Source: Saccharofermentans sp. (GTDB lineage Bacteria; Bacillota; Clostridia; Saccharofermentanales; Saccharofermentanaceae). Taken from it: a stretch of DNA of 64,000 nucleotides. The notes below the pieces were generated by a model, which searched no databases, had not been told where the DNA came from, and was given only the letters and a program-made list of their open reading frames with translations. The stretch covers positions 2,084 through 66,083 of the forward strand of contig JAKSRK010000002.1 of assembly GCA_024403655.1 (NCBI GenBank), read 5' to 3'. Positions 26,755 through 62,822 of this stretch are shown one piece after another. The translations under genes were made by a program, and so were the position numbers. How positions within the stretch are numbered: the stretch's first letter is position 1; each line of letters starts with the position of its first letter.

Positions 26755-26830
26755 GATCCATTAGCTCAGTCGGTAGAGCACTTGACTTTTAATCAAGGGG
26801 CCTGGGGTTCGAACCCCCAATGGGTCACCA
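26755..26830 (+). tRNA. tRNA-Lys(TTT), ICE integration target
   Basis: Cloverleaf with loop CTTTTAA; ends ACCA. Confidence 0.95.
26783..26830 (+). repeat. attL: 48-bp direct repeat (3' half of tRNA-Lys)
   Basis: TGACTTTTAATCAAGGGGCCTGGGGTTCGAACCCCCAATGGGTCACCA, identical at 62775-62822. Confidence 0.95.
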
Positions 26831-26870: not shown

Positions 26871-28037
26871 TTATTTCACATCTTCCAGAACACCGTTAAT
26901 TGCCTCTAGCAACCTTTTACCTGATTCTGTAGCTAATAATTTTTCAAGATTCGCCAGAGATTCATTTGAATTCTCTTTCAAATTAATTTTAGCATTCTTG
27001 TTATTATTGTAAAAACTTTCTTCAATTAAATCAGCATTATTCATTCGATCTTCATCGATAATACGTGAATAAACATCAGTAATCATCTTAATTGTCGCAT
27101 GTCCTGAATCACCTTGAACCGCCTTAAGATTACCGTTAGTGAGTTTCAACTTGTATGTTACACTTGTATGCCGTAAAGAATGAAAACATACTTTAGGAAG
27201 ATTATTCTCTTGAATAAACATTTGAAACAATTTGGATATTCTTCTCGGTTCAATCGGTGTTCCGGTTCTAGAGCAAAAAACTAAATTGTTATCCTCGAAA
27301 TTCACATTGGACTTCTTATAGTTCCCGAGAATTTCATAATGTTCTCTTAGCATCCCAACCAAAGTATTAGGAATATATACCTTCCTTACACTAGATTCAG
27401 TCTTAGGTTTTTTCATAACAAGAATAGATTTACTATTTTTAGTTTTCTGGCTAAAAATTTTATATACATCTCTTCCGTTAAGTTCATAGTATGCTTCCAT
27501 CTCTACTCGCTGCAAAATTCTATCTATATAGAGATATGGTCTATTTGTGTTCAAGTAAACTCTATCCCACTCTAGTGCCAGTATTTCTCCAAGTCTTAAA
27601 GTAGATGAAAAAGCAATATTCATTGCAAGTTTTAAGTTTGGATCCATGCAGAGTTCATTTGCTTCCTTAAGAACATCAATAGTCCAAATATCACGTGGTT
27701 TTAATTGTTCTTTAGGTCGAATTGCATTTTCGACAGGATTCTCCTTTATAAGCTTCCAAATCAATGCTCTCTTGAAAGCACTGTTAAGAAGTTTATGAAT
27801 CAACTTAATTGTATTAGGAGAACAGTTCTCTCTTAGCTGAGATGGAGATGGTACATCAAGCAATTTAACATAAAACTCTTCAATGAATTTTGTAGTTACT
27901 TTCTCAATTTGCTCTTCACCGATATAAGGCTTTATGTACGTTCTGTAGTGCCTTAAATTCAAAGAATAGGTTGAATATGTCCAAATTGATTTTCCGTAGA
28001 TTTCTATAAAATCATAAAGTAGTTCATTAATAGTCAT
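26871..28037 (-). CDS. int: Tyrosine recombinase/integrase
   Basis: LRLGEI (Arg I), KPKT, FHSLRH (HxxR), GH, DVY (catalytic Tyr); abuts attL. Confidence 0.93.
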   Translation of the reverse strand: MTINELLYDFIEIYGKSIWTYSTYSLNLRHYRTYIKPYIGEEQIEKVTTKFIEEFYVKLLDVPSPSQLRENCSPNTIKLIHKLLNSAFKRALIWKLIKENPVENAIRPKEQLKPRDIWTIDVLKEANELCMDPNLKLAMNIAFSSTLRLGEILALEWDRVYLNTNRPYLYIDRILQRVEMEAYYELNGRDVYKIFSQKTKNSKSILVMKKPKTESSVRKVYIPNTLVGMLREHYEILGNYKKSNVNFEDNNLVFCSRTGTPIEPRRISKLFQMFIQENNLPKVCFHSLRHTSVTYKLKLTNGNLKAVQGDSGHATIKMITDVYSRIIDEDRMNNADLIEESFYNNNKNAKINLKENSNESLANLEKLLATESGKRLLEAINGVLEDVK

Positions 28038-28143
28038 GTTAGTTATTACCTTTGCGTTTTTGTGAAAATAACTTACTGAGATAAATGATTCAAGGATGGA
28101 AAATTATTCTTGCATCCTTGACAATCACTGAAAAATAAGCATC

Positions 28144-28211
28144 TAACTTCGTTAGGATTCGAACCTAAAGCTCCGAACAATTCAGATATGTTGCCTTTAC
28201 ACCACGAAGTT
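28144..28211 (-). ncRNA. tRNA-like cloverleaf (pseudo-tRNA) with shortened anticodon loop and no encoded CCA
   Basis: AACTTCG-TG-GTGT AAAGGCA ACAT-A-TCTGA ATTGT TCGGA-GCT-TTAGG TTCGAAT CCTAA-CGAAGTT-A, folded by hand. Confidence 0.75.
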
Positions 28212-28550
28212 ATATAACAGAGGAACAAGCAAGCCTGCCCCCCTGCATATTATTAAGGTTTAAAACTCGCTCAGCCGATAGTAGCTTGTATCGCACATGA
28301 GTCTAACATCTCTTATGGTGGGGAGCTTCTCTCCATACGTGATCCCCTTTCTAAGGGGGTTAGGACTAAGAAGGAGTATCATTATGAGTTCATGGTTCTT
28401 CGCACACAAGGGTGCTACCCTGTTTTATTGGATTTATTCGGCTCTCATTCTTTTCCGCTTAAGTTCTACGACAAATACTTGGATTCAACCTTGATATACA
28501 AGGCAGAATGGTCACAGCCAACCAACACTGCTTCCCATGAATATAAAGTA
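28212..28550 (-). ncRNA. Candidate structured ncRNA upstream of the tRNA-like element
   Basis: No convincing long ORF; many nested helices found by hand (TTGGCT/AGCCGA, CATTCT/AGAATG, CCTTG/CAAGG, AGGGT/ACCCT, CCCCT/AGGGG, TATGG/CCATA, ACAAGC/GCTTGT). Confidence 0.35.
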
Positions 28551-28741
28551 CTGAGCAAGTGTTATATTAGATTGTCAAGGAACGTTCGAGTTCTCAAAAA
28601 TCATAGTTTTCGGAAAATAGCAGAAACAACAAATGGAAGGTAACATTTTGTAGACCTTCCATTAAACTTGCTTGAAATAATCTTTATATCACTATATAAT
28701 ATTTTTGATAAAGAGCTTTCACAAACTATAGTTTGTGAGAT

Positions 28742-29338
28742 TTACGTTTCGTTTTCCTCGATTTCTTCCTTGTATCTATAGTAAGTCGCAAGACCTATTC
28801 CCATAGCAGCACTAGCTTCTTTAACAGACATTTTACCTTCTTCAACTTGTTTAAGAAATCGCTTAAATGTTTCTGGTTTCACTTTACGCGAACGCCCAAA
28901 TTTAACCCCTCTAGCCAGAGCAGATTCTACACCCTGTCTTGTTCGCTGCAAGATTTTCTGTCTTTCTAATTCAGCACAATATCCAAGAATCGTTAATGTA
29001 ACATCCGCCAAGAATTTACCTGACAAGTCCTGTTTATCCCTGGTATCAAGCAAAGGCATATCTAAAACGATAATATCTATCTTCTTTTCTTTAGTTAGAA
29101 TCTGCCACTGTTCCTGTATCTCGATATAGTCACGTCCAAGACGATCTATAGAATACAGATAAAGACAATCGCCTGGCTTAATTTTCCTCATCAGCTTTTG
29201 CCATTCGGTACGGCAAAAGTCTTTGCCTGACTGGTGTTCCTCATATATTCGCATCTCAATACCGAGAGCTTCCATAGCATCCCTCTGTCGATCCGTATTT
29301 TGATGATTGGTGCTAACTCTTATATAGCCATAATTCAT
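28742..29338 (-). CDS. Small serine recombinase (resolvase/invertase) with C-terminal HTH
   Basis: YGYIRVST, SGKD..R, SIDRLGR, ER..I..R..G..A..GVKFGR, GIGLATYYRY. Confidence 0.92.
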   Translation of the reverse strand: MNYGYIRVSTNHQNTDRQRDAMEALGIEMRIYEEHQSGKDFCRTEWQKLMRKIKPGDCLYLYSIDRLGRDYIEIQEQWQILTKEKKIDIIVLDMPLLDTRDKQDLSGKFLADVTLTILGYCAELERQKILQRTRQGVESALARGVKFGRSRKVKPETFKRFLKQVEEGKMSVKEASAAMGIGLATYYRYKEEIEENET

Positions 29339-29389
29339 AAAAATCATCTCCGTTTCTTAACATTATCTTTGATTAATATAGTACATTCA

Positions 29390-42049: not shown

Positions 42050-42076
42050 AACTTCGTGCCAACTTGGCACGAAGTT
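42050..42076. repeat. 27-bp ICE palindrome, copy 5 (perfect)
   Basis: AACTTCGTGCCAACTTGGCACGAAGTT. Confidence 0.95.
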
Positions 42077-60848: not shown

Positions 60849-61751
60849 TCAATCACCTGCATACGCCTTTAATGCTGCTATGATGTATTCCTCTACGTCT
60901 TTATTTGTTTGAAGTCTTGAGGGGAGATAAGAAACTATTCTTTCCCTCTTGATTTTGTATTGTTCCTTCTGATTTCCCTTCAGTTGATTCATTAACGCAT
61001 CAACTGACTCGATGGTTAATTCACCTGCTTCAAACTGTCTCCTTAGTTCCTGAGCCTGATGAATAGACGGATAAGACTGTTTTTCATCAATGGATTTAAA
61101 CACTATCTCCTGAGCTTCAGACGATAGATAAGAAAGTTCAACGGCTGCGTTAAAACTGATAGTTCCTTCATCTACTAATGTCTGAAAATCTTTGTTAAGC
61201 TCATTTAATCGAAGATATCTGTTTATATTTCTTGCAGAATCTCCAAATATTCTTGTCAGATTCTCATTGGTCATACCATCTGCTTTTTTGCCCTGGTGAA
61301 CCGTAGCATTATGTACTCTTTGGTATGTTCTCGCTTTCTCCATATAAGAAATATCAGGACGAGCGATATTTGTTTCAGCCATCTGAATATCTGCTTCATC
61401 GTCAGTTAAATTTCTAACGATAACCTTCATCTTATTAAAACCATTTATTTCAAGAGCATGTCTAGTCTGATGCCCTTTAATGATTTCATATCTGCCATCT
61501 TCATAAGGAGAAGGTCTTACAATGCCAGGAGTAATCTGACCATGCAAATGAACTGAATGAATTAACTCTTGCATTTCTGGATGATCATCCGGCCTAATAT
61601 CGAACGTATGATGCTTATAATCATCAAGAAGATCAATATCCACCGTGATTATCTCTTCTGCTGAGCCGTTACGCATATCTTCACTTGAGAAGAAATCATC
61701 CATAGAAGTCTTTGCTAAAAGCTTATTTTTAATACCCAGTGTATTAGACAT
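60849..61751 (-). CDS. parB: ParB/RepB/Spo0J-family protein
   Basis: LIHSV..HGQITPGIVR..GRYEII.GH, ADIQMAETNIAR, RNINRYLRL HTH region. Confidence 0.88.
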   Translation of the reverse strand: MSNTLGIKNKLLAKTSMDDFFSSEDMRNGSAEEIITVDIDLLDDYKHHTFDIRPDDHPEMQELIHSVHLHGQITPGIVRPSPYEDGRYEIIKGHQTRHALEINGFNKMKVIVRNLTDDEADIQMAETNIARPDISYMEKARTYQRVHNATVHQGKKADGMTNENLTRIFGDSARNINRYLRLNELNKDFQTLVDEGTISFNAAVELSYLSSEAQEIVFKSIDEKQSYPSIHQAQELRRQFEAGELTIESVDALMNQLKGNQKEQYKIKRERIVSYLPSRLQTNKDVEEYIIAALKAYAGD

Positions 61752-62535
61752 TATCAATTACCTCCTTTGTGAATTTCTTATAGGCAATTGAACCCTTACA
61801 CTTAGGAGCATACTTATATACGCTTATCCCCTTAGGCGGAGCCTTTGCTACATGAGCACTCTTAGGAATCTGTGTATCAAATATTCTGATGTTATCTCCA
61901 AATACTTCGCTAACTGATTCTATGATTTCTCTATTGAGCATGAATTTTGATTCGACTATAGTAAAGAGAATTCCAGCAATACTGAGCTTGGGATTGATCC
62001 TTCTCTTAATCCTCTTGATCGTCTCGATAAGCTGCACAAGACCAAGTGAAGCAAAATATTCAGGTTGAATAGGGATGATTACATCATCTGCAGCTACCAG
62101 AATATTCTGCATAAGCATAGTCAAAGAGGGCAGTCCATCTATGATTACATAGTCATATTCTTCAATGCCTATAAAGTCGTATAAAAATCTCTTCAAAGTT
62201 GTTTCCCTTGACATAGCAGTTACTAAAGCAGCTTCAGTAGCAGCCAGTGTGATATTAGCTGGAATCAGATCAACACCTTCCTCATGAGAAAGAATGAACT
62301 GTGCAGATACATCAAGATTTTCTGTATTATCTGATGACATAGCCAAATTCAATCCTTCTGCAAGAGAATACTCAAAGTCATAGTATCCTAAAGCCTGAGT
62401 CGTATTTCCTTGCGGATCAGCATCGACGATAAGGACTTTATATCCTTCTTTAACGAGTCCAATTCCAAGATTGACTGTAGTGGTAGTTTTAGCAACTCCA
62501 CCCTTCTGATTACAAATTGCGATTACTTTTTTCAT
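61744..62535 (-). CDS. parA: ParA/Soj-family ATPase
   Basis: NQKGGVAKTTT, DADPQGN, DYVIID.LPSL, IPIQPE. Confidence 0.93.
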   Translation of the reverse strand: MKKVIAICNQKGGVAKTTTTVNLGIGLVKEGYKVLIVDADPQGNTTQALGYYDFEYSLAEGLNLAMSSDNTENLDVSAQFILSHEEGVDLIPANITLAATEAALVTAMSRETTLKRFLYDFIGIEEYDYVIIDGLPSLTMLMQNILVAADDVIIPIQPEYFASLGLVQLIETIKRIKRRINPKLSIAGILFTIVESKFMLNREIIESVSEVFGDNIRIFDTQIPKSAHVAKAPPKGISVYKYAPKCKGSIAYKKFTKEVIDNV

Positions 62536-62674: not shown

Positions 62675-62774
62675 TAAGGAGATAAAATAATTGCAATAAA
62701 AAAAGACATCTTTTAAAGATGTCTTTAATAACTAAATGATCGAGAAATGTCATGCTGAAAATTAAATCAGCATG

Positions 62775-62822
62775 TGACTTTTAATCAAGGGGCCTGGGGT
62801 TCGAACCCCCAATGGGTCACCA
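62775..62822 (+). repeat. attR: 48-bp direct repeat (3' half of tRNA-Lys)
   Basis: Identical to 26783-26830. Confidence 0.95.

Follow-up and report, generated by a model that had tools for sequence, protein, structure and literature searches.

What is a tRNA-shaped sequence doing in the leader of an integrase gene? The question is raised by a 64,000-nucleotide stretch of contig JAKSRK010000002.1 from Saccharofermentans sp. (assembly GCA_024403655.1), called the window here, in which a 68-nt tRNA-like element (28144..28211, minus strand) lies 106 nt upstream of the ATG of int, the tyrosine integrase gene of an integrative and conjugative element (ICE). Our findings indicate that the element is very probably a real, conserved tRNA-like RNA. 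Its function is a matter for more cautious statement, and the best-supported reading, which we put forward tentatively, is that of a cis-acting cleavage module for ribonuclease P (RNase P) in the long int leader.

On the minus strand the element folds into a cloverleaf, which is also its minimum free energy (MFE) structure. The 7-bp acceptor stem AACUUCG/CGAAGUU (28211-28205 / 28151-28145) encloses a D arm with GG in its loop (GUGU-AAAGGCA-ACAU), an anticodon-like arm with a 5-bp stem and a 5-nt loop (UCUGA-AUUGU-UCGGA), a variable region of 3 nt and the T arm UUAGG-UUCGAAU-CCUAA; a discriminator A at 28144 is followed by GAU, and there is no CCA. A sequence-only reading of the window had described a cloverleaf with a canonical T arm, GG in the D loop, a 5-nt anticodon loop, a 3-nt variable loop and no CCA, and inspection of the sequence and its folding confirmed every part of that description, together with the position upstream of int and a hairpin downstream of the element (CAAGGATG/CATCCTTG, 28091-28120). 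The tRNA detectors on which it proposed to rely were divided. The Rfam tRNA model (RF00005) run with permissive filters gave 40.9 bits (gathering score 29, E 4e-7), so that the element has both the cloverleaf and the score of that family; it was detected neither by Rfam at default filters nor by ARAGORN. The copy in L014 (L-numbers are labels of the loci and contigs compared) scored 40.5 bits with the same model and was called by ARAGORN as 'tRNA-???' with a 2-nt anticodon. The features of a decoder are missing from the window element: it has no 7-nt anticodon loop with U33, a 3-nt anticodon and a purine at 37, and no host-type 3' end with an encoded CCA. In the whole 2.1-Mb genome, 28144-28211 is the sole convincing tRNA-shaped element missed by ARAGORN, and the 9 other matches to a loose minihelix pattern on both strands are chance-like. 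No reading frame is conserved across the element, and a small open reading frame (ORF) spanning it was rejected for that reason.

The case for selection comes from homologues. The order CHAP, resolvase, leader, tRNA-like element, int was found in three ICE lineages: the window type with its variant L126, a wolf-gut type (L014/L061 and L013/L062, with variants L127 and L128), and L122-L125. They supplied five distinct full-length sequences, in which base pairing is kept in 105 of 105 pair cells, all of them standard pairs. Both sides have changed in 8 of the 21 pairs (acceptor pairs 1-2, anticodon-stem pairs 2-4 and T-stem pairs 1-3). Neither the observed pairing nor the covariation score was reached by any shuffle, slid-partner controls were 30-52% paired, and RNAalifold recovered the cloverleaf de novo from the homologue alignment. 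Between lineages whose integrases are 44% identical there are 16 stem substitutions, every one of which preserves pairing, and close variants differ in unpaired loop positions only. The D arm, the D-loop GG and the T loop are invariant in the full-length copies; the anticodon loop varies in both sequence and length (5-6 nt: AUUGU, ACUGU, GCCUAU, GAAUAU). G.U pairs restrict the cloverleaf fold to the transcribed strand. Because all 105 cells are paired and the changes include compensatory double substitutions, the comparison indicates a structure under selection, neither a decaying tRNA nor a decoder, and it lends support to the earlier suggestion of a tRNA mimic with an intact elbow. Four of the homologues (L014, L123, L126 and L127) score 82-96 bits on our model R1, on which real tRNAs reach at most 54 bits.

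More distant relatives carry reduced forms. The form in L012 (integrase 51% identical) has a closing stem and a T arm and no anticodon arm, and that in L006 (integrase 43% identical) has a closing stem and a T arm with neither D nor anticodon arm; their T loops are UUCGACU and UUCGAUU. MAFFT did not align these forms, which were compared by script, and the L006 form resembles that of L014. The closing stem with its T arm is common to all five loci (window, L014, L123, L012 and L006), that is, a coaxial acceptor/T-arm minihelix with its T loop has been kept throughout, with covariation in both stems. In L007 and L009 a PemK/MazF gene stands at the position of the tRNA-like element.

The surroundings of this minihelix bear on what might read it. 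Between the serine recombinase gene and int, the leader (roughly 340-700 nt) consists in order of a pemK-type RNA motif, about 45 nt, a stable hairpin, UUAUAY, the tRNA-like element, a conserved hairpin and int. In the window, UUAUAU (28212..28217, minus strand) directly precedes +1, and TTATAY is kept in all five loci. The AUAY at -4 to -1 fits the host pre-tRNA leader consensus from 31 tRNA genes, with A(-4) in 20/31, Y(-3) in 24/31, A(-2) in 19/31 and Y(-1) in 24/31. The stable upstream hairpin (28218..28246, minus strand, predicted 13-bp stem) was flagged as terminator-like, and in each of the five loci a hairpin of unrelated sequence ends 6-7 nt before the element. Both RNase P and the CCA-adding enzyme require a 7 + 5 bp stack with a T loop, and the host RNase P RNA is of type A (274 bits). 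An RNase P signal is plausible because the closing stem and T arm are constant and UUAUAY fits the host leader consensus. The sequence-only reading had considered a signal for RNase P or RNase Z; the RNase P half of that suggestion is plausible, and the RNase Z half is weakened, there being no RNase Z above the NCBIfam family cut-off in the host genome (best 30.8 bits against 293) and CCA being encoded in 32/32 host tRNA genes found.

The mechanism that we envisage would run as follows. Leader and int would lie on one transcript, and the host RNase P would read the module as a pre-tRNA by way of the closing stem/T-arm minihelix, the T-loop/D-loop elbow and the host-like leader. It would make a single cut between U28212 and A28211, separating the pemK-motif leader, with the hairpin and UUAUAU as its 3' end, from an int mRNA that would begin with the folded tRNA-like part. 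Release as a mature tRNA is not expected of an element without CCA in a host with no RNase Z scoring above the cut-off, and the tRNA-like part would be expected to stay on the int mRNA or to be imprecisely trimmed. In this way the stability and level of int mRNA would be uncoupled from the upstream leader. The stretch from the element to int showed no sigma-70-like promoter.

Several points weigh against RNase P cleavage. The element lacks a 3' RCCA, which type-A RNase P uses, and a clean 3' cut is unlikely in a host whose best RNase Z match falls below the family cut-off. At +1/72, where G-C is usual, the pair is A-U, U-A or G.U. The upstream hairpin with its U-rich tail could be an attenuator that halts many transcripts before they reach the element, and the MFE fold of L012 deviates from a plain minihelix. 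There are only three full-length lineages, which speak for selection and not for a particular function, and model R1 found no full-length element in 143 genomes of the family or 150 of the class.

Other searches were likewise sparing. The int family is rare, its nearest relatives among 5.8 billion proteins being 44-51% identical. Model R1, run over 20 int-related loci and 30 loci with the pemK motif, added no members to the three lineages. An integrase-based search for loci found none in genome contigs and one distant match in metagenome contigs, and DNA BLAST of the leader against the 143 family genomes gave a weak pemK-motif match only. Exact patterns for the D arm and T loop retrieved nothing from genome and viral contigs except genuine tRNA genes, mostly of phage tRNA-Met/Trp/Gln types, and a pattern derived from the leader gave chance matches only in viral contigs. 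The upstream region of L005 (integrase 51% identical) was entertained as a homologue without a T arm and rejected, since it is a TTGACA-17-TAGTAT promoter. Contigs L057-L060 end just past the resolvase gene, short of the position of the element. An integrase fragment in L011 (positions 1-1484) is 96% identical to that of the window, with 99% nucleotide identity over 27018-27740 only and unrelated sequence upstream; it shares only the 3' part of int and is uninformative for the element, and it is either a recombinant or truncated integrase or part of a chimeric contig.

The source assembly (2.1 Mb, 97.8% complete) represents a low-GC, Clostridia-type bacterium. Its tRNA-Lys(UUU) gene (26755..26830, plus strand), identified by ARAGORN and Rfam, contributes its last 54 nt as attL of the ICE; a copy of this 3' part of the gene at the far end (62769..62822, plus strand; repeat family D10, 96% identity) is attR, and the direct repeat 26777-26830 / 62769-62822 flanks a 36-kb element. 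Encoded within it are VirB4, VirD4, PrgI, a MobA/VirD2-type relaxase, a NikA/MobC accessory protein, a CHAP hydrolase and a pilin-like protein, and it is an ICE inserted in tRNA-Lys. The minus strand carries nearly all of its long ORFs (at least 90 aa), including all the genes just named. The last ICE gene, adjoining tRNA-Lys, is int (26871..28037, minus strand, ATG at 28037), which encodes a 388-aa tyrosine integrase with Pfam Phage_integrase and SAM-like domains and relatives at 34-51% identity. Upstream of the int leader is a gene for a small serine recombinase of the resolvase/invertase type (28742..29347, minus strand; Pfam Resolvase, 96.9 bits). The approximately 700 nt between these two genes hold no conserved ORF, and the order CHAP, resolvase, gap, int is found also in L012, L014 and L123. 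In a 35-kb wolf-gut scaffold (L013:4150-4640 / L062:11150-11640), int is followed by a tRNA 3' fragment, tRNA-Asp, tRNA-Phe, a terminator and then, directly, the parA-parB end of an ICE, and a 501-kb wolf-gut scaffold has host genes after the same tRNAs; this arrangement suggests that in the 35-kb scaffold the element was assembled in tandem or across a circular junction.

The 5' part of the int leader has a distribution of its own. The pemK-type motif (RF02913; 28293..28385, minus strand) scores 32.3 bits in the window and 33.7 bits in L014, both just short of the gathering score of 34.8, and 53.5 and 43.1 bits in L007 and L009; the window and L014 leaders are nearly invariant over it. It stands before mobile-element genes in 34 of the 150 Clostridia genomes sampled, and in the loci that we fetched the genes that follow encode large serine recombinases, ParA, a sigma-70 region-4 protein, PemK toxins and a Tn916-type Xis. 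This variety of mobile genetic element (MGE) genes downstream shows the motif to be a general leader of recombination and maintenance genes of mobile elements in Clostridia. The tRNA-like element was present in 0/30 of the fetched pemK-motif loci. The motif has a conserved 5' box, ATAATGATAC, that resembles a -10 element and may be one; TTGTGT or TTATGT is found 17 nt further upstream. The source for RF02913 is Weinberg et al. 2017 (PMC5737381), the main text of which does not discuss the motif.

At the other end of the leader, the hairpin CAAGGAUG...CAUCCUUG (28091..28120, minus strand) forms the 5' edge of the int module. Its 5' arm, UGUCAAGGAUGC, is common to the window, L005, L012, L014 and L123, and in L012 and L005 the hairpin is followed by a T-run, giving it the look of an intrinsic terminator. 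The L123 leader, tRNA-like element included, is 82% identical to that of the window over 693 nt, and this nucleotide similarity ends at the UGUCAAGGAUGC hairpin (window ~28112; L123:9200-10010); the L123 integrase is 44% identical to that of the window and 68% identical to that of L014. On this comparison, integrase cassettes seem to have been swapped at the UGUCAAGGAUGC hairpin. Beyond the leader, two near-palindromic sites follow the serine recombinase gene, TCACAAACTATAGTTTGTGA (~28716-28739) and TTCCGAAAACTATGATTTTTGAGAA (~28590-28618), the L014 version of the latter resembling the hixL site of Hin. They flank about 120 bp containing a strong plus-strand promoter, TTGAAA-17-TATAAT (28672-28700, 11/12), that is directed away from int. 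Two independent metagenome contigs, L058 and L060, end exactly at the centre of the TCACAAACTATAGTTTGTGA site, and the segment 28590-28739 has the same orientation in every longer contig examined. Going by its layout, the segment may control the int leader as a promoter switch that works by inversion.

The acceptor stem of the element raises a further question, that of its resemblance to a 27-bp palindrome present in 13-15 copies in the ICE between 31011 and 60838. A perfect copy, AACTTCG-YGCCAANTTGGCR-CGAAGTT, lies at 42050..42076, and the consensus of the repeat recurs in L061/L062 and L123; other copies in the window start at approximately 31018, 35998, 41679, 43898, 45150, 54024, 55699, 56655, 57021, 57423, 59715 and 60811. 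The outer arms of the consensus, T-AACTTCG...CGAAGTT-A, are identical to the acceptor stem and the T and A on either side of it, as the sequence-only reading had noted and as we confirmed in the window; AACTTCG paired with CGAAGTT within 150 nt occurs only in the element and in three perfect palindromes. The reading had also asked whether the stem tracks the repeat in homologous ICEs, and the answer depends on the lineage. The palindrome arms AACTTCG...CGAAGTT are kept in all three. The acceptor stem matches them at 7/7 + 7/7 positions in the window (AACUUCG/CGAAGUU) and at 6/7 + 7/7 in L123 (GACUUCG/CGAAGUU), where the stem does follow the repeat, but at only 4/7 + 5/7 in L014 (UGCUUUG/CGAAGCA), where it does not. 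The palindromes themselves do not evolve as the element does: 13 of 21 copies from three ICEs have uncompensated broken pairs, C-G and T-A both occur at one position only, and the same centre, GCCAANTTGGC, is present in 21/21 copies and absent from 28144-28211. The palindromes precede minus-strand ribosome-binding sites by a few nucleotides, and in most cases have U on their 5' side and a purine on their 3' side. This pattern is like that of a protein-binding DNA operator or a parS-like site rather than of an RNA hairpin. A common reader of palindrome and element at the RNA level is unlikely because the two features are under different kinds of constraint, and on these comparisons the identity of acceptor and palindrome arms most likely reflects no functional coupling. 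Common descent, or a weak role at the DNA level, is conceivable because the match recurs in a second lineage (L123). As RNA, the 27-nt palindrome would form a stem of 12 bp, of which 7 bp are identical to the acceptor and 5 bp are additional; this is the length of a tRNA acceptor/T-arm stack, and it is possible to imagine RNase P or another acceptor-stem reader as a punctuation system of the ICE with the tRNA-like element as its full-length founder; we consider this very unlikely. The same low standing attaches to the corollary that the palindromes are minihelix mimics at which a 35-kb polycistronic transcript is cut into stable gene-sized mRNAs.

The earlier proposals that one factor recognises both stem and palindrome, or that the element is a bipartite version of the repeat site, find no support here: L014 keeps its palindromes with a divergent acceptor, and the frequent broken pairs and the invariant centre of the palindrome have no counterpart in the element. 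A DNA-level alternative would make the acceptor strands TAACTTCG and CGAAGTTA split half-sites for a palindrome-binding protein, such as the ParB-like protein of the ICE (60849-61757), so that a factor marking every operon would also touch the int leader. The match amounts to 8 + 8 nt in the window and to 7 + 7 of 8 + 8 in the palindrome-bearing L123. The probability that a given 7-mer matches by chance is about 1e-4. Yet L014/L061 combines nine such palindromes with the acceptor TGCTTTG/CGAAGCA, the half-sites would be 52 bp apart without the GCCAANTTGGC centre, the outer arms are the most variable part of the palindrome, and compensatory change, as seen in the stems of the element, is not required of DNA half-sites; we regard this alternative as unlikely. 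The ICE and its relatives integrate into tRNA genes, elements of this kind often carry tRNA fragments, and ARAGORN rejects the element, all of which would suit a neutral relic, a pseudo-tRNA from an old att site or a captured tRNA that has not yet decayed. Against this, it is no copy of tRNA-Lys or of any other host tRNA, a search for a parent among these yielding T-loop matches only; it possesses the 5' acceptor strand that att remnants lack; and the 16 stem substitutions, all of them preserving pairing, largely refute the idea and leave it with very little credence. A pseudo-att site was rejected as well, since the att repeats lie at 26777-26830 and 62769-62822 and the stems are kept by compensation, as was a T arm covarying with that of the att-site tRNA, of which there is no instance in the sequences compared. 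That the element serves translation as a working tRNA of unusual form is scarcely credible: it exceeds the Rfam gathering score and the L014 copy drew a 'tRNA-???' call from ARAGORN, but the 5-6 nt loop has no conserved anticodon, U33 or R37, the arm is absent from L012 and L006, CCA is lacking where all host tRNAs found encode it, and acceptor identity positions vary.

Two further alternatives accept the element as a selected RNA and differ from RNase P cleavage in what it is selected for. It might be a decoy or sponge, free or borne on the mRNA, that binds a tRNA-recognising protein through elbow or acceptor stem without decoding. Candidate targets would be toxins, defence nucleases, modification enzymes and the CCA-adding enzyme, and the effect would be to protect the ICE or to tune a host pathway. 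The invariance of the elbow (D-loop GG and T loop) in full-length copies whose anticodon loops drift freely is in keeping with this, as is the presence of a PemK/MazF endoribonuclease gene after the same leader motif in L007, L009 and L072, where it replaces the tRNA-like element. The drifting loop, on the other hand, makes anticodon nucleases unlikely targets, and with an arm missing in two relatives and no NCCA, the suggestion in the sequence-only reading of a decoy for anticodon nucleases or T-box sensors is weakened. The module has been kept in L012 and L006 regardless of the loss of the elbow, one copy in an mRNA leader would be a weak sponge, and no partner protein was identified; we think a decoy improbable. 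The other alternative is a structural part of the int leader that does not involve RNase P, serving as a block to 5' exonucleases or as a piece of an attenuator with the flanking hairpins. Its tRNA shape would then be inherited from a captured tRNA gene and not used as such. There are conserved hairpins on both sides, the downstream one terminator-like in L012/L005 and the upstream one flagged so, and the top real-tRNA matches to R1, tRNA-Lys(UUU) genes in arrays of the same genus (45-54 bits), suggest descent from a real tRNA. A generic block, however, needs no invariant UUCGA in its T loop, no 7 + 5 bp stack and no AUAY across loci that cannot be aligned elsewhere, and we would give this account, and the inherited shape that goes with it, a similarly small chance.

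In regard to origin, the D arm of the element is that of the small-D-loop tRNAs common in phage and MGE tRNA arrays. Arrays in three genomes of the same genus contain another 68-nt element (L119:686-753, L120:2068-2135 and L121:727-794), with tRNA-Arg on one side and tRNA-Ile or tRNA-Tyr on the other, at the normal spacing of 3-5 nt. It comprises the acceptor GCUUCCG/CGGAAGC, the T arm CUGAG-UUCGAGU-CUCAG and a mini anticodon arm of 3 bp and 5 nt, and it lacks CCA; ARAGORN makes no call there and Rfam places it below the tRNA threshold. Going by these sequences, non-decoding tRNA-like genes may be a wider feature of the genus.

Set beside known systems, the element shares with bacterial tRNA genes (RF00005) the full cloverleaf, the 7 + 5 bp stack, the UUCGAAU T loop, the D-loop GG and a host-like 5' leader. 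Phage tRNA-Trp/Gln-type genes have exactly the same D arm, and the array tRNA-Lys(UUU) of the same genus is close. It differs from tRNA genes in its unconserved loop of 5-6 nt, the absence of U33/R37 and CCA, its position in an mRNA leader and the reduced state of two relatives. The pemK RNA motif forms the 5' part of the same leader, yet it is a separate element. The tRNA fragments at att sites are likewise tRNA-derived sequences beside the integrase gene of an element that targets tRNA genes, but the element described here is complete on both acceptor strands, unrelated to tRNA-Lys and structurally selected, and the true att sites are elsewhere. The mascRNA of MALAT1 and its MEN-beta counterpart (RF01684) are also tRNA mimics with a short anticodon region inside a longer transcript, and there an RNase P cut sets the 3' end of the upstream RNA, as we propose for the tRNA-like element. 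They are eukaryotic and without sequence relationship to it: RF01684 gave 24.8 bits in L014, below its gathering score of 42.5, and no match in the window. Moreover, mascRNA is released by RNase Z, of which the host here has none above the cut-off, and receives CCA. The part downstream of the cut would here be mRNA. RNase P sites have reportedly been described in bacterial polycistronic mRNAs and in tRNA-mRNA co-transcripts, with tRNA-containing operons of E. coli among the examples. What they share with our proposal is the idea that the host RNase P acts on an mRNA and alters the fate of the downstream cistron; such sites are real tRNAs or loosely tRNA-like folds, whereas the one in the int leader is a dedicated, conserved, non-decoding cloverleaf on a mobile element.

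Mimics of tRNA that recruit tRNA-processing enzymes occur in plant viruses, in mammalian long non-coding RNAs and in a few bacterial operons. In our literature search we found no report of a selected, dedicated, non-decoding cloverleaf in the integrase leader of a conjugative element. If cleavage by RNase P proves true, the module might find use in Gram-positive synthetic biology as a compact, natural insulator based on RNA processing. If RNase P does cut here, a mobile element would be tying the expression of its integrase, and so its excision and integration, to a core enzyme of its host.

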